Made by a program: the position numbers and the translations under genes. A DNA stretch of 60,555 nucleotides from a virus. This document shows, piece after piece, positions 1-60,555 of the stretch (position 1 is its first letter; each line of letters starts with the position of its first letter). Under the pieces are notes generated by a model that saw only the letters and a program-made list of their open reading frames with translations, had not been told where the DNA came from and did not search any database. Location of the stretch: IMG/VR virus record IMGVR_UViG_3300010400_000007; one strand, given 5' to 3'.

Positions 1-123
1 AGGGTCTTGACGCCGGCGGGCACGAAGCCGTCGGCCTCGGCCTGGCGCAGGCGCGTGAACAGCGGCGTCGCATTGCCGCTGGTGGTGATCCCGATGTCCT
101 CAGTCAGCTGAACGAACTGGCGC
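1..123. repeat. Terminal direct repeat, copy 1 (identical to 60433..60555)
   Basis: Read directly: agggtcttgacgccggcggg...aacgaactggcgc occurs at both window ends. Confidence 0.95.
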
Positions 124-17110: not shown

Positions 17111-18325
17111 ATGCGCCGCCGCCGCCTCGCCATCGTGGCCGACAGCCACCACGACCACTCCTCGCGCTTCGAGGAGTGCGTGCGCGTTCACGACTGGATC
17201 GCGGAGGACATCGCCGCGCGCGAGGTCGACCTGCTGCTCCACGCGGGCGACGTGTACGAACGGCGCAGCACGCCCGAGGAGCGCCGCGCCGTAGCGGCCT
17301 GGGCGCAGCGGGTCACGAAGCGCACGCCGATGATCATCGTACGCGGCAACCACGACCAGCCGGGCGACTTGTCGCTGCTGGAGCGGCTCGAGACCGAGCA
17401 CGAGCTGCGCGTGGTCGAGGGCGCCGAGGTGCTCTGGGGCTCCGCGTTCGGCGGGTTCGTGGTGGGTTGCCTGGCCTGGCCCACCAAGGCGAGCGTGCTC
17501 GCGCTGGGCGCGACGTCGCGGGCGGAGGGCGAGGCCGACGCGGGCACGGCGCTGCGCAACGTGCTGCTCGGGCTGGGTCAGGACATGGACCGCGCGTCGG
17601 AGCACGAGCCCAAGGTGCTGCTCGCGCACGCCATGGTGCGCGGCTCGCGGGTGTCGACCGGCCAGCCGCTGGTCGGCTGCGACCTCGAGGTCAGCATCGA
17701 GGACCTGGGCCTTGCGCGCGCGGGCTTGTACGCCCTGGGCCACATCCACAAGGGCCAGGACTGGGCGATCAACGGCGCCCCGGTGATCTACCCAGGCAGC
17801 CCCCGGCGGACCGCGTTCGGCGAGCTCGAGCCGAAGGGCTACGTGGTGGCGGAGTTCGACGGGCCCCGCTGCGTCAGCTGGGAGCTGGTGCCCACGCCAT
17901 GCGCGCCGATGATTCACATCACCGCGAACTGGGTGGACCGGCTCGACGTCGCTCTCGATAGCACGGGCGAGATCCGCGACGACGTCGGGCCCGGGCTTGC
18001 TTTCGACCCATACCCCGTCCCGGACGTGGAGTGCGCCGAAGTTCGCGTGCGCTACGTGGTGGAGTCCGACAAGCGCGAGGCAGCGAAGGCCGCCGCGGTT
18101 GCGTTTCGGGACCAACTCCTCGCGGCGGGCGCCGCGAACGTCAAGATCGAAGAAGAGGTCGAGGCCGTCAACGGCGCGCGCGCTCCCGAGGTCGCTCGCG
18201 CGCGCACGCTCGCCGACAAACTCCTCGCGCTCTGGCAGGCGCGGCGCACTACGCCACCGGAACAACGCTTGCACCGCCTCACCGACAAGGCTTCCCAGCT
18301 CGAGGAGGTGGCCCGTGCGGTTTGA
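17111..18325 (+). CDS. SbcD/Mre11-like metallophosphoesterase nuclease
   Basis: Calcineurin-fold motifs VADSHHD, AGDVYE, RGNHD, LLAHA, LGHIH. Confidence 0.8.
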   Translation: MRRRRLAIVADSHHDHSSRFEECVRVHDWIAEDIAAREVDLLLHAGDVYERRSTPEERRAVAAWAQRVTKRTPMIIVRGNHDQPGDLSLLERLETEHELRVVEGAEVLWGSAFGGFVVGCLAWPTKASVLALGATSRAEGEADAGTALRNVLLGLGQDMDRASEHEPKVLLAHAMVRGSRVSTGQPLVGCDLEVSIEDLGLARAGLYALGHIHKGQDWAINGAPVIYPGSPRRTAFGELEPKGYVVAEFDGPRCVSWELVPTPCAPMIHITANWVDRLDVALDSTGEIRDDVGPGLAFDPYPVPDVECAEVRVRYVVESDKREAAKAAAVAFRDQLLAAGAANVKIEEEVEAVNGARAPEVARARTLADKLLALWQARRTTPPEQRLHRLTDKASQLEEVARAV

Positions 18326-20729
18326 TAGAATACGCGGCCGGAACATCGGCCCTTTCAAGGGCGATTTCGATCTCGAAATCGCCGCGCTCCCGGGCCTGCT
18401 GATCAGCGTCGAGGGCGAGAACGGCGCCGGCAAAACGACGCTCCTCGGGCTGTTGCCCGGCACGCTGTTCCGCGAGGTGCCGACGCGCGGCTCGCTCGCC
18501 GCGCTCGCCACTGGCCGCGACTCGTTCTGTGAGGTGACCGTCGTCAACGGCGCGCGGCACGTCGTGCGCCAGCTGATCGACAGCCACACCGGCAAGGGCG
18601 AGACGGCGATCCTTGACGGCGCGGGCGCGGCCGTGCTCGGCAGCGGCAAGGTCAAAGAGGCTGACCGCTGGATCGCAGAGCACTTCCCGCCGGCCGAACT
18701 GCTCTACAGCTCGAGCTTCGCCGTGCAGGGCTCGCGCGGCCTGTTCGACCTGACCGCCACCGAGCGCAAGGCGGTGATCAATCGGGCACTCGGCATCGAG
18801 CACTACGAGCGGCTGGCAGAGGCTGCGCGGGATCGCTCGCGCGGCACGAAGGCGACCTTGGATGGGCTCCGCGCCCGGTTGGCCGACCTCGGCGCGCCCG
18901 ACCTGCCGGCGCTCGAGGCCGCGCTGGTCGGAGCGCGACAGCGCGTCGAGGAGGCCGCCGAGGCCCTGCGCGGCGCGCGGGTGGCGCTCGACCGGGCCAA
19001 GGCGGCCGCCGGCGACGCGGCCCGGCAGGCGGAGCTGGCGGAGCAGCGCCGGGCGGCCCAGCGTCGCCTGGACGCCGCGCAGAAGGGCCTCGCCGAGCTC
19101 GAGGAGCGCCTGCGGAACAATCGGGGGGTCCTGGACCAGGCGCAGCAGATCCGCGCTGCCATCGCCCAGGCGGCGGAACTTGACGCGCAGATCGAGGCCG
19201 CGCGGGGCCCGGCCGCCGAGGCGGTCCGTGCCTACACCGCGGCCGTGGCCGCTGAGCACGCTGCCGGCAACGCGCACCAGCGCGCGGCCGACGATGTGAG
19301 CCAAGCCCAAGGGCGCATGCTGCGGGCGCAGAACCGGCTGAGGGACCGTGCCAGAGTGGCCGAAGCAGCCGGCACCGTCGCGCGCAGCCGGGCGCGCGAG
19401 ACCGAGCTCGAAGCCGAGATCGCGGAGTGTGAGCAGGCGGCGGCTGACTACGAGCGGCTGGTGCTGCGCGGGAAAGACCAGCGAATCGAGGGGCTACGCT
19501 CTGGATTGCAGCGAGTCGCCTCCCACCCCGACGATTTCAAGCAGGAGATCGCGCGCGAAGCCCTCGATGCCGACGACGAACTGGCCGCGCGCGCGGCTGC
19601 GGCGCCGCAGCTCCGCGATGGCGCACGGCAGCAAGTCAGAGACCGTCGGGCACTGCTGGCCGACGTCCGGCGCATCCTGAGCGAGGCGCAGGCACTCGCC
19701 GCGCGCGCGGGCGAGATCGCGCAGGCCGAGGCCGATCATGCGCAGGCCCAGCAAGAGGAAGCGGCCGCGTCCGAGCGGCTCCAGGCCGCCAAGGTGGCGC
19801 GCGACCAGGCGGCGGCGCAGCGCGCGGAGACGAACCGCACCGCCGAGGCTGCCGAGAGCGCGCTCGATTCCCTGCGCGGCAAGCGCGCGGCCCTAAACGC
19901 CGCGCTTGCGCTGCGCGAGCGCCTCGAGAAGGCCGAGGCCCGCATCGAGGAGCTCCAGGCCCAGGAGCCCGTCGCGCGCGCCGCGGTGGCCCAGGCAGAA
20001 GCCGAGCTGGCCACCCTCCCCCAGGTCGATCCGGCCAAGCCGGTGGATCTGGCCAGCCACGAGCGGGAGGTCGAGCGTCGGGAGAGCCTCGAGCGTGCCG
20101 CCGGTGGTGAGCTGGCGCGCGCCGAGGCGAAGATCGACCGTGCCAAGGAGGTCCTGCACGTCCGCGCGGACATCGAGAAGCAGATCTCGGAAGCCGAGGA
20201 CGAGCTCGCCGACTGGACGCGCCTCGCCGCGGACCTCGGCAAGGATGGCCTCCAGGCGATGGAGATCGACGCCGCGCTGCCCGAACTCGGCGCGATCACG
20301 AACGACTTGCTCCACGCCTGCCACGGGCCCCGCTTCACGGTCGAGTTCCGCACCGACCGCCTCAGCGCCGACGCGAAGCGCACGATCGAGGACTTCGAGA
20401 TCCGCGTGATCGACACGGAGCGCGGCCGAGACGCGCTCGCCGAGACTTACAGCGGCGGCGAGCTGGTGCTGGTCGGCTCCGCCGTGTCGCTCGCGCTCAC
20501 TACCCTCGCCTGCCGGCGCTACGGGCACGAGCACGTGACCATCGTGCGCGACGAGTCCGGCGCCGCGCTCTCGCCGACGAACGCGCGCGCCTGGGTGGCG
20601 ATGCTCCGGCGCGCCGCCACCGCCATCAACGCGGACAAGGTGCTGATGGTGACGCACTCGCCCGAGCTCGCCGAGCTGGCCGATGCGCACATCCGGCTGG
20701 CCGACGGGCGCATCGAGGTCATGCCGTGA
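18315..20729 (+). CDS. SbcC/Rad50-like SMC ATPase
   Basis: GTG at 18315 after GAGGAGG. Walker A GENGAGKTTLL, long Ala/Glu/Arg coiled coil, signature YSGGE, Walker B VTIVRDESG, H-loop MVTHS. Confidence 0.8.
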   Translation: MRFDRIRGRNIGPFKGDFDLEIAALPGLLISVEGENGAGKTTLLGLLPGTLFREVPTRGSLAALATGRDSFCEVTVVNGARHVVRQLIDSHTGKGETAILDGAGAAVLGSGKVKEADRWIAEHFPPAELLYSSSFAVQGSRGLFDLTATERKAVINRALGIEHYERLAEAARDRSRGTKATLDGLRARLADLGAPDLPALEAALVGARQRVEEAAEALRGARVALDRAKAAAGDAARQAELAEQRRAAQRRLDAAQKGLAELEERLRNNRGVLDQAQQIRAAIAQAAELDAQIEAARGPAAEAVRAYTAAVAAEHAAGNAHQRAADDVSQAQGRMLRAQNRLRDRARVAEAAGTVARSRARETELEAEIAECEQAAADYERLVLRGKDQRIEGLRSGLQRVASHPDDFKQEIAREALDADDELAARAAAAPQLRDGARQQVRDRRALLADVRRILSEAQALAARAGEIAQAEADHAQAQQEEAAASERLQAAKVARDQAAAQRAETNRTAEAAESALDSLRGKRAALNAALALRERLEKAEARIEELQAQEPVARAAVAQAEAELATLPQVDPAKPVDLASHEREVERRESLERAAGGELARAEAKIDRAKEVLHVRADIEKQISEAEDELADWTRLAADLGKDGLQAMEIDAALPELGAITNDLLHACHGPRFTVEFRTDRLSADAKRTIEDFEIRVIDTERGRDALAETYSGGELVLVGSAVSLALTTLACRRYGHEHVTIVRDESGAALSPTNARAWVAMLRRAATAINADKVLMVTHSPELAELADAHIRLADGRIEVMP

Positions 20730-22249: not shown

Positions 22250-22740
22250 TGCTGGCGCTCAGCTTCATCCAGCCGTGGGCATCCGCCGTGCTGCTCGCCG
22301 GCAAGAATATCGAGAACCGCCCGTGGGCGCCCACGAAGGCGGTCCTGGGGACGCGCATCGCGATCCACGCGGGGAAGAAGGTCGATAAGGGCGACGCATG
22401 GGAGCTCCTGCAGCACCTTCCCGACCTCGGCAATGTGCCGCGCGGGGCGATCCTGGGCACTGCCGAGGTTGCTGGCTGGGTTCGATTTGAGAACAGCCTC
22501 AGCGGGCCGCACCTCGGCGTCACGGACTTCGTAGGACTGACCGAGTTCCAGGTGGCGGCTGTCCACGCGTCGATGTGGCTGCATCCATCGACGCCGTGCG
22601 CGTGGGTGCTGCGCGCGCCGCGCGTCCTGCCCGAGCCCATCCCGTGCGCCGGCGCACTTGGACTCTGGCGCCTGCCGGCCGACGTCGAGGCCCGCCTCAA
22701 CGCGCAGCTCGCCGCCCCGGAGGCCTCGACATGCCCCTGA
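22249..22740 (+). CDS. ASCH (PUA-like) domain protein
   Basis: LSFIQPWASAVLLAGKNIENRPW...IAIHAGKK...GAILGTAEV matches the phage ASCH pattern. Confidence 0.65.
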   Translation: MLALSFIQPWASAVLLAGKNIENRPWAPTKAVLGTRIAIHAGKKVDKGDAWELLQHLPDLGNVPRGAILGTAEVAGWVRFENSLSGPHLGVTDFVGLTEFQVAAVHASMWLHPSTPCAWVLRAPRVLPEPIPCAGALGLWRLPADVEARLNAQLAAPEASTCP

Positions 22741-24476
22741 ACATCGCGGCCGACCTCGCGCTGCCCGACAACGCGGTCACCCAAACCTTCGGCTTCCTCG
22801 CGCGCAAGGGCGCCGGCAAGACCTACGCCGCGGGCAAGCTGGTCGAAGAGCTGCTCGAGCTGCGCGCGCCCGTGGTGGTGCTCGATCCGGTCGGCACCTG
22901 GTACGGACTGCGCATCGGCGCCGACGGGAAGTCGCCCGGCGCGAGCGTGCCTGTCTTCGGCGGCGAGCACGGCGACGTGCCGATCGAGGTCCACCAGGGC
23001 GAGGCCGTCGCGCGCCTGATCGTTCAGCGGAACCTCTCCGCGGTCCTCGACGTCAGCGCGTTCCGCAAGAACGAGCGCAAGCGGTTCGTCACGGACTTCG
23101 CCGAGACGCTGTTCCACGAATCGAAGCGGGTGCGCACCGCGCGCATGGTCGTGCTCGAGGAGGCGCAGGTGTTCGCGCCCCAGCAGGCCAAGGGCGAGGA
23201 GCGCATGCTCGGCGCGATCGAGGACATCGTGCGCCTCGGTCGGAACTACGGACTCGGCAGCACCCTGATCAGCCAGCGGCCGCAGAGCGTCAACAAGGAG
23301 GTCCTCAACCAGGTCGAGGCGCTCTTCGTGGGACAGCTGAGCGGCCCGCACGAGCGCAAGGCCATCGAGGGATGGGTCGTCGACAGAGGGGCCGACAAGG
23401 AGTGGCTCCGCGAGCTGCCTTCGCTGCCCGTCGGCACCATGGTGCTCTGGTCACCGCAGTGGCTGCAGACCTTCCGGAAGGTGAAGATTGGGAAGAAGCG
23501 CACGCTCGACGCGAGCGCGACGCCCGAGCTTGGGAAGGCGCGCCTCGTCACCGCGCCCGTCGAGATCGATGTGAGCGAGCTCCGGGCCGCGCTCGACGAG
23601 CCAGAACCGAAACCGAAACCGAAGGCCAAGCGAGCGCCATCTCGCGAGGACGAAGCGCCCGAGAGGCACCACCACGACCTCGTGGCGGAGACGACGCAGC
23701 TCCGGATGGCGAACGACGAACTGCGCGGGGTCAACCGGGCGCTCACGGACCTGGTGGAAACCGCGGTGAAGGAGCTCGACCGCCTGCTGCTCGAGGCGAT
23801 CAGCAACCTGCGCCGGGCGCTCACCGTCGCGCGCGGCGTCGTAGCGTCGTCCGCGAGGAATCACGGCGCGGTCATCGATGCCGAGTTCGATGGGCACGAC
23901 TCCGACTACCCCGAACCGCCGCCGCCGATGCCGAAGGCGCCGCGAATGCGACGTGAGGCTCGGACGATGACGGCGGGCGCGCCCACGAACGGGGCGCTGA
24001 GCGGCCCCCAGCGGGCGATCCTTGAGACGCTGGCAGAACTCCACCCCCTCCCCTTCACGCGCTACCAGCTCGCGAAGGCCCGCGGCGTGCACATGCGCTC
24101 GAAGGGTCACCAGAACACCCTCGGCGCGCTCTCGAGCGGCGGCTACATTGAGAAGTCCGGCGATTCGGTGAGACTCACGGACAAGGGCGTGGTCGCCGCC
24201 GGCCTCCCATTCGTCGCGTCCCCGGCGCGACCGACGCGCAAAAAGATCGAGGCGTTCTGGGCCGACCGCATCACCGGCACCGAGGACAAGATCCTCGGGC
24301 TCGTGAGTCCATTCCGCTCGCCGCCGTTCGACCGCGATGCGCTGGCGCGCAGCCTTGAAGTCCACCCGCGATCGAAGGGCTTCCTCAACGCGCTGGGCGC
24401 GCTTCGCAGCGCCGGGCTGATCACGAAGGGGGCGACCGTCGAGCTCACGCCCTACATGCTCGGGAGGTCGTTGTGA
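22731..24476 (+). CDS. HerA/FtsK-like P-loop ATPase with two C-terminal winged-helix repeats
   Basis: Walker A ARKGAGKTYAAG, VVLDPVGTWYG, Walker B MVVLEEAQVF, LISQRPQSVNKEVLNQ. Tandem repeats ...HMRSKGHQNTLGALSSGGYI... and ...HPRSKGFLNALGALRSAGLI... Confidence 0.65.
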   Translation: MPLNIAADLALPDNAVTQTFGFLARKGAGKTYAAGKLVEELLELRAPVVVLDPVGTWYGLRIGADGKSPGASVPVFGGEHGDVPIEVHQGEAVARLIVQRNLSAVLDVSAFRKNERKRFVTDFAETLFHESKRVRTARMVVLEEAQVFAPQQAKGEERMLGAIEDIVRLGRNYGLGSTLISQRPQSVNKEVLNQVEALFVGQLSGPHERKAIEGWVVDRGADKEWLRELPSLPVGTMVLWSPQWLQTFRKVKIGKKRTLDASATPELGKARLVTAPVEIDVSELRAALDEPEPKPKPKAKRAPSREDEAPERHHHDLVAETTQLRMANDELRGVNRALTDLVETAVKELDRLLLEAISNLRRALTVARGVVASSARNHGAVIDAEFDGHDSDYPEPPPPMPKAPRMRREARTMTAGAPTNGALSGPQRAILETLAELHPLPFTRYQLAKARGVHMRSKGHQNTLGALSSGGYIEKSGDSVRLTDKGVVAAGLPFVASPARPTRKKIEAFWADRITGTEDKILGLVSPFRSPPFDRDALARSLEVHPRSKGFLNALGALRSAGLITKGATVELTPYMLGRSL

Positions 24477-24859
24477 AGAAGGCCGAGCGAACTGTGCGCC
24501 GCGTCGGTCCTCGGCCCACCGACATCGCGTGGGTGCCCGGCGTGTCGTGGCATTCGCAGATCGAACTGCTTTACCGCCGCGAGCACATCCACCGCTGCTG
24601 GTCGCAGGTCCAGCTGTTCACGATCTGGCTGGTGCAGCAGGTATTGAGCGGCTCGCCGGCAAATCCCCTAGCCCCGCTCACCCCGCGCGAGCGCGAGGTC
24701 GTCAAAGCGCTGCAGAGTGGCTTGCGCACGAGCAGCATCGCGACCGCGCTGAGCATAGCCCCGGACACGGTGCGCAACCACCTCAAGCACGCTTTCAGCA
24801 AGCTGGGGGTCAACTCGCAGGTCGAGCTGCTCGCGCTCGTGGGAGGCCGCCGTGGCTGA
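24473..24859 (+). CDS. LuxR/GerE-family HTH regulator
   Basis: C-terminus LTPREREVVKALQSGLRTSSIATALSIAPDTVRNHLKHAFSKLGVNSQVELL. Confidence 0.75.
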   Translation: MKKAERTVRRVGPRPTDIAWVPGVSWHSQIELLYRREHIHRCWSQVQLFTIWLVQQVLSGSPANPLAPLTPREREVVKALQSGLRTSSIATALSIAPDTVRNHLKHAFSKLGVNSQVELLALVGGRRG

Positions 24860-25892
24860 CTCCGCTATCCAGTGGTGCGACAAGGTCTGGAACCCGGTTC
24901 GCGGGTGCCGACGCGTCTCGCCTGGGTGCGAGCACTGCTACGCCGAGCGCCAGGCGCACCGCTTCTCCGGCGCCGGCCAGCCGTACGAGGGCCTCACCAA
25001 GTTGACGAAGCGCGGCCCCGTGTGGACGGGCGAGGCGCGCTTCGTCCCGGAGATGTTGGCGGCGCCGCTCTCCTGGAAGAAGCCCGCGCGCATCTTCGTG
25101 AACAGCATGAGCGACCTGTTCCACGAGGACGTCACCAACGAGCAGATCGCGGCGGTGTTCGGTGTTATGTGGGCGTGCCCGCAGCACACATTCCAGGTGC
25201 TCACGAAGCGACCCGAGCGCGCGGTCCGCTGGTTCGAGTCCATGCGATGGGCGCACGGCAATAGTCCGTTGACGGGCCCATCGCGGATGAGGGTCGACCC
25301 GCTCACATCGTGCCAGATTCTTGCGGGGCGGCTCGTGAAGCTCGGCGCGTACAATCTTGGGGAACGTCCACAAATCTGGCCGCTGCCCAACGTCTGGCTC
25401 GGCGTCAGCGTCGAGGACCAGCAGCGCGCCGACGAGCGCATCCCACCGCTGCTGCGGTGCCCCGCCGCAGTGCGCTTCGTCAGCGCCGAGCCGCTACTCG
25501 GACCGGTGGATCTCTCGTGCGTCGCGCTGCCCGAGAGCTGGCGCGTCGAAGACGACATCGCAGACTGCATCGACGCGCTGCGCTACGACCCAGCGCACAT
25601 CGACTGGGTGATCGCCGGCGGCGAGAGCGGGCCCGGCGCACGCCCCTGCTGCCTCAGCTGGCTGCGCAACATCGTGCACGACTGCGATGAGGCCAGCGTG
25701 CCCTGCTTCGTCAAGCAGCTCGGCGCCAAGCCCTACGAGGCGCGCGACGATGCGCCTGACGACGAAGGTCGGTGGGAGCCCGAAGCATGGCTCAACCTCG
25801 ACGATAAGAAGGGCGGCGATCCGGCGGAGTGGGTCGCGTTCGGCGAGAGCTACCTGAACGTGCGGCAGTTCCCGGAGGTGCGTCATGGCTGA
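24852..25892 (+). CDS. Phage Gp37/Gp68 family protein (DUF5131, three-Cys motif)
   Basis: N-terminus IQWCDKVWNPVRGCRRVSPGCEHCYAE..., IFVNSMSDLFHE, FQVLTKRPER and a GGESG segment are hallmarks of this family. Confidence 0.75.
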   Translation: MADSAIQWCDKVWNPVRGCRRVSPGCEHCYAERQAHRFSGAGQPYEGLTKLTKRGPVWTGEARFVPEMLAAPLSWKKPARIFVNSMSDLFHEDVTNEQIAAVFGVMWACPQHTFQVLTKRPERAVRWFESMRWAHGNSPLTGPSRMRVDPLTSCQILAGRLVKLGAYNLGERPQIWPLPNVWLGVSVEDQQRADERIPPLLRCPAAVRFVSAEPLLGPVDLSCVALPESWRVEDDIADCIDALRYDPAHIDWVIAGGESGPGARPCCLSWLRNIVHDCDEASVPCFVKQLGAKPYEARDDAPDDEGRWEPEAWLNLDDKKGGDPAEWVAFGESYLNVRQFPEVRHG

Positions 25893-28815: not shown

Positions 28816-28979
28816 GGGCCGCGCCTAGGTTCCACCGCGCGCGGCACGCCGCGGACTGCAAGTTCCTGCTTGCCGCCGCCGGCCCCATCGGGATCGCATG
28901 TGATGACCACGGGCGCGATTGCTGCGCGGTGTGCGACCCATGCACCTGCGAGGCCTTCGGCCAGAAGGCCGCGTCATGA
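28812..28979 (+). CDS. Cys-rich micro-protein (55 aa)
   Basis: Hand translation MRAAPRFHRARHAADCKFLL...CDDHGRDCCAVCDPCTCEAFGQKAAS. ATGA coupling at both ends. Below the track size cutoff. Confidence 0.4.
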   Translation: MRAAPRFHRARHAADCKFLLAAAGPIGIACDDHGRDCCAVCDPCTCEAFGQKAAS

Positions 28980-29251
28980 CGTGGCCCGCAAAGCTCATCC
29001 CCGTCGAGGGCGCGATCAGCGACGTTGAGATCGGGCGCTTCGAGGACCTCAGCCCATTGATCGGCGGCGGCCATGTCGAGGTCGTCCGTATTCAGGGCGG
29101 CCGGCTCATCGTGGACGAGGAGGGGCTCCTGAAGGGCCTCGCCCGGAACGTCCGCGCCTCGGTCCTCTACGCCGGCGGGCACATCGTCGGCGACGTCCTG
29201 CTCTTCACCGAGCAAGCCTTCCAGGCCTTCGACCAGAGCCTGGCGCGATGA
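28976..29251 (+). CDS. DUF3846-like protein
   Basis: MTWPAKLIPVEGAISDVEIGRFEDLSPLIGGGHVEVVRIQGGRLIVDEEGLLKGL..N fits the DUF3846 pattern. Confidence 0.5.
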   Translation: MTWPAKLIPVEGAISDVEIGRFEDLSPLIGGGHVEVVRIQGGRLIVDEEGLLKGLARNVRASVLYAGGHIVGDVLLFTEQAFQAFDQSLAR

Positions 29252-29863: not shown

Positions 29864-30192
29864 CGACGAAGCGCCTCGCCCCCGAGCGGGAAGCCGAACT
29901 CCGCGCATTCGTTGCTGGGGAGCACGCGAGCTTTGCCTGGCGCGAACTGTTCGACGAGATCGACGCCCTGCGCGCTCAGCTGGCGCACGAACTGGCGATG
30001 GATGTGATCCCTGTCGCGATGCGCGACGCAGAGCAACGCGGGCGCGAGGCCGAGCGCGCTGACGTCGTCGCGCATCTGAAAGCCCTAGCGGCGGGACTCG
30101 GCGCGAACCTCTTCGAGACGCACGCAAAGAACACCCTCGGCTTGGTTGCACGCCAAATCGGGCGCGGTGAGCACGTGAAGGGGCGCGGCTGA
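29860..30192 (+). CDS. Hypothetical protein (110 aa)
   Basis: ATG at 29860 (ATGA coupling). Helical composition. Confidence 0.5.
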   Translation: MTTKRLAPEREAELRAFVAGEHASFAWRELFDEIDALRAQLAHELAMDVIPVAMRDAEQRGREAERADVVAHLKALAAGLGANLFETHAKNTLGLVARQIGRGEHVKGRG

Positions 30193-31901
30193 TGCGCGAG
30201 CTCGTCTACCGCTGCCTCTTCCCCTTCGGCGGCTCCGGGAGCGGCGCTCGCGGATTTCTCGACGCCGCGATCACCCTCCCCGGCCTGGGCGTCTCGGCCC
30301 GCTTCGAGTGCGTGGGCGGGGTCGACCTGGACCCGCTGGCCTGCGCTGACTTCGAGTACCTCACGGGCACGCCCGAGCTCTGCTCGGATGTCGAGGCCCT
30401 GACGCCGGCCGATCTGCGCCAGCGCTTCGGCGCGCGCGCCCCGCACTGCGTGTTCCTGTCGCCGCCCTGCAAGGGCGCGTCAGGGCTGCTCTCGGCCGCC
30501 AAGTCGCGCACCAGCAAGTACGAGCGCATGAACGAGCTCGCGCTCGTCTGGACGCGGCTGATGCTGCAGGCGTGGGCGGGCGACCCGCCGCCGCTGGTGC
30601 TGCTCGAGAACGTGCCGCGGCTCAAGACCCGCGCCGCGAAGATGCTGCGCGAGGTGCGCCGGCTGCTGCGCGGCGCCGGCTACGTGCTGACCGACGGCTT
30701 CCACGACTGCGGCGAGCTCGGAGGGCTCGCGCAGCGCCGGCGCCGCTACCTGCTGGTGGCCCGGCACCCGCGGCGCTGCCCGCCGGTGCTCTACCAGCCG
30801 CCGAAGCGCCGCGTGCGCGGCTGCGGCGAGGTCCTCGGCGAGCTGCCCGTGCCGGGTACCGTCGACGCGCGCGCCTTCGGGAAGATGCACGAGCTGCCGC
30901 GCCTGAGCTGGCTGAACTGGGTCAGGCTCTCGCTCATCCCTGCCGGCGGCGACTGGCGCGACCTCGAGGGCGTACTGGCCGAGGGCCAGGCTCGGCGCGA
31001 GGCCTTCAAGCGGCACGCGGTGGAGGGCTGGGGCGAGCCGACGGGCACCGTGGGCGGGAGCGGCTCGAACGGGGTCGCGAACGTCGCTGATCCGCGAATT
31101 ACCGACCTGCGTCCGGACGGCAACTTGCGCAATTCAGCAAGTTGGGGCGGCGGACGACTAGGCATTACAGGTTGGCAGGAACCCGCAGGAACGGTCACCG
31201 GGCAGAGCCTCCCTAACAACGGCCGCTTCGCGGTGGGGGATCCGCGCTTCTCGCCGAGCAACGGCCGCCACTGGAACAAGTACGCGGTCGGCGCCTGGGA
31301 GGATCCGGCGCGCACAGTGATCGGCGCGATCCAGCCCGGCTCCGGTGGGCCCGGCGTCGCCGATCCGCGCGTGAGCAACGCGTTCGATGCCGGCTACGCG
31401 GTCCTCCGCTGGGAGGACGCCGCGCGCACGGTGGCTGGCAAGAGCGCTGTCGGCTGCGGCGCCTATGCGGTCGCGGACATCCGGGTCGGCTGCGAGCCGC
31501 GCGCCGGCGCCTACGGCGTGGTCCGCTGGGACGAGAGCGCGCGGACGATCACCGCCTCGCTCAACGTCGACAACGGCGCGGCCGCGGTGGCGGACCCGCG
31601 CCGGCCGCCGTCGTTCATCCCCGTGATCATCGCGGCCGACGACACCTGGCACCGGCCGCTGACCACGCTCGAGCTCGCCGCGCTGCAGGGCTTCCCGCTG
31701 CGCGTGCGCGGTGAGCCGCTGAAGCTCGCTGGCGACGGCCACTCGAAGTGGCGCGAGCGAATCGGCAACGCGGTGCCGGCGCCGGCTGCGCGCGCGATCG
31801 CAGAGAAGATGCTCGTCGCGCTCGCCGAGTCGTCGATCGGTGCGTTCTCACTCTCGGGCGAGGCGGTGTGGGTGCAGCCGGAAGCCGTGGCGCAGCGATG
31901 A
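30192..31901 (+). CDS. DNA (cytosine-5) methyltransferase with a five-fold repeated variable-region module
   Basis: Motif I FPFGGSGSGARGF, IV SPPCKGAS, VI LLENVPRL, VIII QRRRRYLL, IX-like LTTLELAALQGFP, X GNAVPAPAA. Residues 275-470 contain five W-[EDG]-[EDP]-x-x-[RG]-T-[VI]...V-[AG]-D-[PI]-R units. Confidence 0.85.
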   Translation: MRELVYRCLFPFGGSGSGARGFLDAAITLPGLGVSARFECVGGVDLDPLACADFEYLTGTPELCSDVEALTPADLRQRFGARAPHCVFLSPPCKGASGLLSAAKSRTSKYERMNELALVWTRLMLQAWAGDPPPLVLLENVPRLKTRAAKMLREVRRLLRGAGYVLTDGFHDCGELGGLAQRRRRYLLVARHPRRCPPVLYQPPKRRVRGCGEVLGELPVPGTVDARAFGKMHELPRLSWLNWVRLSLIPAGGDWRDLEGVLAEGQARREAFKRHAVEGWGEPTGTVGGSGSNGVANVADPRITDLRPDGNLRNSASWGGGRLGITGWQEPAGTVTGQSLPNNGRFAVGDPRFSPSNGRHWNKYAVGAWEDPARTVIGAIQPGSGGPGVADPRVSNAFDAGYAVLRWEDAARTVAGKSAVGCGAYAVADIRVGCEPRAGAYGVVRWDESARTITASLNVDNGAAAVADPRRPPSFIPVIIAADDTWHRPLTTLELAALQGFPLRVRGEPLKLAGDGHSKWRERIGNAVPAPAARAIAEKMLVALAESSIGAFSLSGEAVWVQPEAVAQR

Positions 31902-59712: not shown

Positions 59713-60555
59713 TTCACGGACTCTCCCGCGAGCTGCCCGAGGGCAAACCAGAACGCTTCCTCGTCTTTGTCTACCAAATTCGCGGTGTTCTGGTGGAGCT
59801 CCTCGAGCGCCATGGAAGAAACCTCCGTGGCGAAGCGCGTGCCCATGCGGTCCAAGTAATCCTTGCCCATGTAAGGATTGAAGAAACGGTCCCGCTTGGC
59901 GATTTCGTCAGCCCGATAACCATTGTTCCCGGTCAGCTCGCGCATGGTGAGTGCGACCTCGCCTGCGGTGCGCTGCTTCAGGAACGCTTCGGCCGCGCGC
60001 CGGGCCCGGTCGTTGTGCTGCTCGAGGCCGTGCGCCATCTCGTGCACCAGGGTCGAGTGCCCGTCGTCGAGCAGCTGGCCGAGGCGCGTGATCCAGTGGG
60101 TCCAAACGACGCGCGCCGCGGGGTCGTAGTAGGCGCGCGAGTTCGCCCACTTGATCACGTAGCCGCGGCGCCGGTCGGGCAGCACCAGCGACGCGTCCGA
60201 CAGCTCAGCCCAGAACGCACGCACCTTGCGGACGATCTCGCCCGCCGTCTTTCTCAGCTGCAGCGGCGCACCCGGTCCCACGGCCGGAGTCGCCAAGCTC
60301 ACTGCCTGCCCGGTCGGCCGGATGCCGGCGCGGTGCCCGATCAGGCCGGCCAGCGCGCGCACCTCGTCGAGCGTGCCCTTGAGCGAGGGCGTCTTGTCGA
60401 GCGCGCCCGTGAGCGCGTCCGCGACCTCGCCCAGGGTCTTGACGCCGGCGGGCACGAAGCCGTCGGCCTCGGCCTGGCGCAGGCGCGTGAACAGCGGCGT
60501 CGCATTGCCGCTGGTGGTGATCCCGATGTCCTCAGTCAGCTGAACGAACTGGCGC
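59709..60555 (-). CDS. C-terminal part of the MuF-family protein: HExxH (zincin-like) domain; continuous with 1..983
   Basis: The tracked M at 60455 is an internal GTG (..DGFVPAGVKTL..). STLVHEMAHGLEQHND at 60030..60044, followed by a helical region with conserved-looking E/D residues. Confidence 0.75.
   Translation of the reverse strand, partial: RQFVQLTEDIGITTSGNATPLFTRLRQAEADGFVPAGVKTLGEVADALTGALDKTPSLKGTLDEVRALAGLIGHRAGIRPTGQAVSLATPAVGPGAPLQLRKTAGEIVRKVRAFWAELSDASLVLPDRRRGYVIKWANSRAYYDPAARVVWTHWITRLGQLLDDGHSTLVHEMAHGLEQHNDRARRAAEAFLKQRTAGEVALTMRELTGNNGYRADEIAKRDRFFNPYMGKDYLDRMGTRFATEVSSMALEELHQNTANLVDKDEEAFWFALGQLAGESVK
60433..60555. repeat. Terminal direct repeat, copy 2 (identical to 1..123)
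   Basis: Same 123-nt string as the window start. Consistent with an assembly overlap of a circular molecule or a short DTR. Confidence 0.95.

Follow-up and report, generated by a model that had tools for sequence, protein, structure and literature searches.

How many DNA targets can a single phage cytosine methyltransferase recognize when one short module is repeated five times along its chain? This question is raised by a 60,555-nucleotide (nt) stretch of viral DNA (IMG/VR record IMGVR_UViG_3300010400_000007; this whole stretch is called the window below), in which an open reading frame (ORF) of 569 amino acids (aa), the query of our analysis, combines the catalytic core of a C5-cytosine DNA methyltransferase with five consecutive modules of 31–33 aa. 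Multispecific C5-methyltransferases are a textbook curiosity, represented by a handful of Bacillus phage enzymes whose target-recognition domains (TRDs) are ~40 aa in size and include some reported to be inactive. Our analysis tips slightly towards the query being an orphan phage multispecific methylase, analogous to the enzymes of SPR, phi3T, rho11s and H2, that belongs to an unrelated sequence family with a more regular array.

The 569-aa ORF is an intact C5-cytosine DNA methyltransferase, as the initial annotation had proposed on the basis of its normal motifs. Pfam PF00145 matches it at 48.2 bits (cutoff 22) in two stretches with the array between them, and the family phrog_116 ('DNA methyltransferase') matches it at 2.6e-44; phrog_116 and phrog_32684 are the PHROG families of the query clade. 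All motifs named in the initial annotation (I, IV, VI, VIII, and X), together with motif IX, are read in the query in the expected order and are invariant across 62 homologues (Table 1). The core letters of motif I are FPFGGSGSG, PF00145 positions 271–322 correspond to the motif IX region, and the IPAGGDWRDL segment aligns with the G-S-DWRDLP segment of DNMT1, whose sequence matches to the query cover motifs IV–VIII and IX–X. AlphaFold2 modeled the catalytic domain with a predicted local distance difference test score (pLDDT) >90 for aa 1–170 and 490–550. Foldseek, which was informative solely for this domain, retrieved DNMT1, MET1, DNMT2, and M.HaeIII (E 3e-13 to 5e-10). Against TIGR00675 (dcm, NCBIfam), the query scores 33 bits and does not reach the cutoff of 100.65 bits; it is a member of a divergent phage clade and not a Dcm orthologue.

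Table 1 Features of the methylase gene and its immediate neighbors, in window coordinates.
Feature	Residues (aa)	Position (nt)	Strand	Evidence and remarks
Upstream small ORF, 140 aa		29770..30192	+	No family match; stop overlaps methylase start (TGATG)
C5-cytosine DNA methyltransferase, coding sequence	569 in total	30192..31901	+	ORF list, PF00145, phrog_116, structure match
Motif I (S-adenosylmethionine binding), FPFGGSGSGARGF	10–22	30219..30257	+	Direct reading; F12, G14, G21 invariant (62 homologues)
Motif IV with catalytic Cys, SPPCKGAS	90–97	30459..30482	+	S90, P92, C93 invariant; aligns with DNMT1 PCQ motif
Motif VI, ENVP	139–142	30606..30617	+	Direct reading; 4/4 residues invariant
Motif VIII, QRRRR	181–185	30732..30746	+	Direct reading; homologue conservation
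IPAGGDWRDL segment, opens variable (TRD) region	249–258	30936..30965	+	Invariant in homologues
Putative TRD-core unit 1 (type A), FKRHAVEGWGEPTGTVGGSGSNGVANVADPR	272–302	31005..31097	+	46.5 bits
Putative TRD-core unit 2 (type C), GRLGITGWQEPAGTVTGQSLPNNGRFAVGDPR	321–352	31152..31247	+	49.0 bits; variable middle cassette
Putative TRD-core unit 3 (type D), WNKYAVGAWEDPARTVIGAIQPGSGGPGVADPR	361–393	31272..31370	+	46.6 bits
Putative TRD-core unit 4 (type B), AGYAVLRWEDAARTVAGKSAVGCGAYAVADIR	400–431	31389..31484	+	50.0 bits
Putative TRD-core unit 5 (type E), AGAYGVVRWDESARTITASLNVDNGAAAVADPR	438–470	31503..31601	+	48.5 bits
Motif IX, WHRPLTTLELAALQGFP	486–502	31647..31697	+	W486, H487, R488, P489, T491, L493, E494, Q499 invariant
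Motif X, GNAVP	525–529	31764..31778	+	Direct reading; homologue conservation
Downstream Cys-rich ORF, 116 aa		31898..32248	+	Many CxxC pairs; no Pfam or family match; start overlaps methylase stop (ATGA), translationally coupled

The repeated unit and its relation to target-recognition domains

The five-fold repetition lies between motifs VIII (aa 181–185) and IX (aa 486–502). A first 33-position unit profile was derived from 484 modules of the query and its 120 closest homologues, and, before the query was scored, the profile was rebuilt with the query and the four proteins closest to it left out. This leave-query-out profile matches the query five times within aa 272–470, at 46.5–50.0 bits each, while the best score among 2000 shuffles of the query protein is 5.5 bits; the repeat is therefore real, and a chance or low-complexity origin is ruled out. 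Regular expressions give the same picture, with W-x5-T-[VI] matching at aa 280, 328, 369, 407, and 446, and [VA][AG]D[PI]R at aa 298, 348, 389, 427, and 466, the last match ending at nt 31601. Five tandem modules thus stand where the initial annotation had placed them, with one adjustment: because each unit starts eight residues ahead of its W, the array begins at nt 31005 and not at nt 31014. The search for a further copy was negative, as WHRPLTTL in motif IX fits the pattern W-x5-T-[VIL] but is not matched by the unit profile at a domain E value ≤1.

A common scaffold of V6, W9, P12, T15, V16, G18, G25, and V-A-D-P-R at positions 29–33 is conserved in all units, with departures in unit 4 (A for P at position 12 and I for P in VADIR) and unit 5 (S at position 12). 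The D-type unit, for example, reads WNKYAVGAW..PARTVIGAIQPGSGGP.VADPR. In each unit, two type-specific segments (positions 1–5/7 and 17–28) flank the T-V dipeptide. Unit positions 1–5, 7, 17, 19–24, and 26–28 are variable overall (2–3.2 bits) but conserved within a type (0.7–1.8 bits).

What, then, is this unit? PMC2413257 gives a consensus for the 'TL motif' of TRDs, (YFW)X(RK)X5P(STCA)PT(ILV)(TASV)X5-16H(PFYWL), and describes the residues flanking TL as crucial for DNA recognition. All five query units keep the spacing of this motif (aromatic/hydrophobic, x, x, x5, P/A/S, [STCA], x, T, [VI], x, x11–13, D, P/I). They differ from the consensus in having V/I for R/K, G/R for the second P, and D for H, and a strict regular expression for the TL motif finds 0 matches among the five units. 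When a profile built from 67 diverse units (alignment A2) was run against every PDB sequence, it matched a single protein weakly (E = 0.49), namely M.HaeIII at residues 225–243 (RNRVRQWNEPAFTVQASGR), exactly at the expected place of its TRD. Likewise, M_MAGs_10, an experimentally validated monospecific enzyme whose sequence is printed in PMC11954522, contains exactly one match to the unit profile, VYGRMEWDKPSPTITTQ, which lies in its TRD and scores 12.4 bits. Based on these sequence comparisons, the repeated module appears to be the published TL-motif core of a TRD. Monospecific enzymes of the Dcm/HaeIII type (M.HaeIII, PDB 1DCT/3UBT, and M_MAGs_10) have the same catalytic motifs and the same TL module as the query, e.g., RNRVRQWNEPAFTVQASGR...LHP and YGRMEWDKPSPTITT...GHP; however, they contain it once and close it with H-P, whereas the query has five copies that close with A-D-P-R. 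The earlier statement that the module is single in ordinary enzymes is thus upheld by the M.HaeIII match, the one match in M_MAGs_10, and the TL spacing.

The alignment with M.HaeIII also relates the variable positions of the unit to base recognition. In the profile alignment, M.HaeIII S224, R225, R227, and R243 correspond to unit positions 2, 3, 5, and 21. In M.HaeIII, R225 touches the first G of GGCC, S224 and R227 touch inner bases, and the R243Q substitution moves specificity towards GCGC (PMC3526282). If every unit type recognized a sequence of its own, type-specific residues would be expected at just these base-contact positions of M.HaeIII, as is observed.

Origin and turnover of the units

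The initial annotation had described the array as recently expanded, a view that our data contradict. Within the query, the units are mutually only 33–52% identical over the 33 profile positions, whereas the closest counterpart of each unit elsewhere, which occupies a conserved array position in other proteins, reaches 55–71% identity (median). Members of the query subfamily always begin with unit 1 and end with unit 5, and most of them have unit 4 next to last. At the DNA level, TRF detects no tandem repeat in the array, and similarity is limited to patches of 15–41 nt with 61–93% identity at the VADPR boundaries. Recent tandem duplication is therefore ruled out as the source of the repeats.

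Repeat-number variation, for which a survey of homologues had been suggested, is extensive, with 3 to 12 units found. A word-index search with the query returned >6000 proteins at E ≤1e-5, from which the 120 best matches and the query were taken as a close set of 121 proteins. In this set, proteins carry 2–10 units (mode 5), and protein length increases by 42.7 aa per unit from a base of 357 aa (r = 0.86). Searching 1.84 billion representatives with the unit profile yielded 515 clusters at 50% identity (390 of them at E ≤1e-10 and 181 at ≤1e-30), and as many as 12 stretches of one protein were matched. Among the best 149 of the 515, 113 are complete, i.e., they contain both halves of the family's catalytic core, and these have 3–11 units. 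The 660 units fall into 24 types when clustered at ~50% identity and into 75 when clustered at ~60%, and the 121 proteins display 74 distinct unit architectures.

Cassette behavior of the units is seen when near-identical enzymes are compared. When the first 260 residues of two proteins are at least 85% identical, the unit number still differs in 14 of 29 pairs. In one such comparison, P0010 (nine units) and P0062 (six units) have cores that are 92% identical and share six units that are 73–97% identical, and none of the three extra units of P0010 exceeds 64% identity with another unit of that protein; they are not copies of their neighbors, and one of them, unit 3, matches query unit 3 at all but 3 of the 33 positions. 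Order also changes: the query reads A-C-D-B-E and P0008 reads A-D-C-B-E, with the swapped C and D units being reciprocal best matches. Judged from these sequences, units are gained, lost, and reordered as cassettes in homologues that are otherwise intact. The closest 120 homologues had suggested that A, B, and E form a fixed scaffold in which only the middle units act as TRDs, an arrangement weakened by the wider family, where no type is fixed as first or penultimate among the 113 complete representatives (A is first in 32 and B penultimate in 8). In 69 of the 113, the array closes with an E-like unit.

The family includes phage members outside the window. The methylases of LKA5, H66, and Dobby, Pseudomonas phiCTX orf41 (five units), and Sinorhizobium PBC5 gp34 (eight units) resemble the query over 94–100% of its length at 38–42% identity and have a unit array, but differ from it in unit sets and numbers. 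All five are temperate phages that encode the homologue in early or replication regions, where it is annotated merely as 'hypothetical protein' or 'DNA cytosine methyltransferase'; no published specificity was found for any of these five homologues. Overall, the family is large and apparently undescribed.

Several members depart from the common architecture. In P0132, P0197, P0256, P0217, and P0082, an intein (Hint + LAGLIDADG) sits in the catalytic domain at core position ~85–100, near motif IV, and approximately doubles the length of the protein. P0164 and P0264 form a divergent sub-branch in which S-Y-A-D-P or A-Y-A-I-A replaces V-A-D-P-R at the unit end and an additional segment of ~80 aa precedes motif IX. 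As for unit arrays outside methyltransferases, the only candidate is P0146 (614 aa), in which a GcrA cell-cycle-regulator domain (aa 5–162, E = 5e-45) is followed by seven units with no methylase core; a frameshift seems to affect its C-terminus and only this one representative shows the arrangement, which makes a pseudogene, a chimera, or an assembly artefact probable, and the other matches that seemed to be core-less are fragments at contig ends. If real, P0146 would have the unit array serving as a stand-alone DNA-binding module.

One target or several

Tandem TRDs in phage enzymes, to which the initial annotation had likened the array, are documented: Bacillus phage C5-methyltransferases, in which several TRDs follow one another, act on several targets (PMC8936443, PMC12707154). 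Like M.SPRI, M.Phi3TI, M.Rho11sI, M.H2I, M.SPBetaI, and M.(phi)BssHII, the query has one catalytic core with contiguous putative TRDs between motifs VIII and IX, and like the Bacillus phage enzymes it is a phage-encoded orphan with modules centered on T-[LIV]. The likely role in both cases is protection from several restriction systems together. Several features by which SPR-type enzymes are recognized are also found here, in that five contiguous units (aa 272–470; SPR-type enzymes have at least two TRDs) share one core, the gene is phage-encoded with no cognate restriction enzyme recognized among its neighbors, and the units appear modular by comparison, with the activity of the homologues being assumed. 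We compared the variable regions of M.SPRI, M.Rho11sI, and M.H2I directly and found three to four T[LIV]-centered modules in them, e.g., VYNSSGLSPTITTNKGEG and DEPAFTVNTIDRHG. The earlier observation that stacking is visible as repeats thus stands for the query, although it is not unique to it, because the TRDs of the Bacillus enzymes are weak sequence repeats as well. In contrast to the Bacillus enzymes, the query array is more regular (fixed W..P..TV.G...G...VADPR), has more units in its family (3–12 versus 3–4), and is freely permuted. Gram-negative bacteria (Pseudomonas, Sinorhizobium, Marinobacter, and Achromobacter) are the hosts of the query family, and the catalytic cores of the two groups are related at the general C5-methyltransferase level only. 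Because the unit profile has no match to the Bacillus TRDs, the query is placed with these enzymes in architecture but outside their sequence family, and the resemblance of their TRDs is analogous or very distant.

In the mechanism that we consider most likely, though only slightly more probable than not, five autonomous mini-TRDs arranged in tandem would serve one catalytic core and dock singly beside the active site, each placing the cytosine of its own short target. If each unit positions its own target, the enzyme would methylate several distinct motifs, up to one per unit. Phage DNA, whether replicating or packaged, would thereby become resistant to several host restriction systems, and the gain, loss, and reordering of cassettes in evolution would retune the set of protected sites. 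From the within-type conservation of the loops, we infer that every unit could be active with its own specificity. The extension of this scheme to a whole family of hyper-multispecific phage C5-methyltransferases, with 33-aa mini-TRD cassettes (3–12 per enzyme, ~25–75 types) that are freely inserted, deleted, and permuted, and with each type corresponding to one DNA target, is put forward more tentatively and, in our estimate, falls somewhat short of an even chance.

Several observations weigh against multiple specificities. AlphaFold2 gives no confident fold for the array, either in the query (62 sequences, pLDDT 25–49) or in the three-unit homologue P0027 (units A-B-E; 117 sequences, array pLDDT 33–49), so that these models favor neither separate lobes nor one integrated body; no solved structure of a multispecific C5-methyltransferase was found. 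Linkers between units are short (median 6 aa), and it is hard to picture how a single active site would serve up to 12 units in succession. The same coarse unit type can occur more than once in a protein (e.g., CCCCCGDDE), and such copies would be redundant if type equals specificity. The link to known TRDs is open to objection as well: the M.HaeIII profile match is not significant alone, the unit closes with A-D-P-R where ordinary TRDs have H-P, and the unit profile does not match the TRDs of M.SPRI, M.Rho11sI, and M.H2I (best E 0.19–0.31, confined to the heptapeptide DEPAFTV). Finally, a full-text literature search, with most subscription journals and REBASE outside its scope so that prior notice is possible, returned no paper on the family or the array.

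Part of this evidence is shared by an enzyme of single specificity, which we consider unlikely, in which one unit, most probably the last, next to motif IX, would be the TRD and the others would form an extended DNA-binding arm or clamp that raises affinity or processivity, or reads flanking sequence, without adding new targets. The last unit is indeed the most positionally conserved, being E-like in the majority of complete representatives and constant as the last in the subfamily, all units keep one scaffold and short linkers as solenoid-type repeats do, and the recurrence of coarse types within one protein is readily accommodated. However, middle units change order and near-identical enzymes differ by the presence or absence of whole units, which is unexpected for an integrated fold; type-specific conservation extends beyond the scaffold to the base-reading positions of M.HaeIII, and AlphaFold2 predicts no regular solenoid for either the query or P0027.

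A partly decayed array, somewhat less likely again, would be of multispecific origin but would retain several units as inactive 'pseudo-TRDs' that act as spacers, so that the number of methylated motifs falls well below the number of units. The scaffold departures of unit 4 (A at position 12 and VADIR) and unit 5 (S at position 12) are what such decay might look like, yet the five units score alike (46–50 bits), and the loop conservation within types, with B and E included, argues for purifying selection on each type. A relaxed or near-nonspecific hypermethylase, whose many weakly specific units would modify most cytosines in short contexts (e.g., CG, GC, and CC) and produce bulk 5-methylcytosine (5mC), would suit a window with a GC content of 69%, and so with many restriction sites needing protection, as well as arrays of up to 12 units, and has a precedent among phage and prophage adenine methylases in the near-nonspecific M.EcoGII (cited in PMC12707154), but it is improbable given that the strongly conserved type-specific loops suggest defined recognition and that the sequence bears no sign of lost specificity.

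Genomic setting and implications

The window is the complete circular genome, ~60.4 kb in size, of a temperate tailed phage. It carries an exact terminal direct repeat of 123 nt (window positions 1–123 = 60433–60555), and a 610-aa open frame on the minus strand crosses the junction of its ends, which together establish that the genome is closed. Genes recognized in the window are those for terminase, portal, protease, capsid, sheath, tape measure, baseplate, and integrase, along with SbcCD-like and DnaC-like genes. The methylase has its nearest named relatives in metagenome-assembled genomes of Polyangiales, and the host of the phage is probably a member of this order.

The methylase gene overlaps a small ORF on either side (Table 1), and the downstream 116-aa Cys-rich product could be a zinc-binding partner or regulator. 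No nuclease domain was recognized in the methylase neighbors at the query locus or at the P0001 locus; a restriction-modification system is thereby ruled out at these two loci, and the methylase is taken to be an orphan. The operon of small ORFs that includes the methylase also contains, two genes ahead of it, a gene for a small DUF3846 protein (28919–29251, + strand; 27.7 bits, just over the cutoff of 27.5). Further away, upstream of the integrase, two segments on the + strand (17111–20729 and 22575–25892) encode SbcD-like and SbcC-like nuclease subunits, a HerA/DUF87-type ATPase of 633 aa, and a DUF5131 protein (E = 1e-81).

The array would represent the same solution as that of the Bacillus enzymes, reached in a family that is unrelated to theirs and much larger, with 515 clusters at 50% identity and members in well-known phages of Pseudomonas and Sinorhizobium. 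Its regular scaffold allows unit boundaries, unit types, and candidate specificity residues to be read from the sequence. If the units are independent TRDs, the natural 3- to 12-unit variants constitute a deletion and swap series for mapping a 5mC recognition code, and if each type corresponds to one target, they form a natural library in which short peptide loops are paired with DNA motifs and which could be used for decoding and engineering specificity. In that event, many prophage methylases now annotated as single-specificity enzymes would need revision. Independent TRDs would also explain how, with one gene, temperate phages that infect Gram-negative bacteria escape many Type II systems, and this anti-restriction strategy would be far more elaborate than the Bacillus paradigm.

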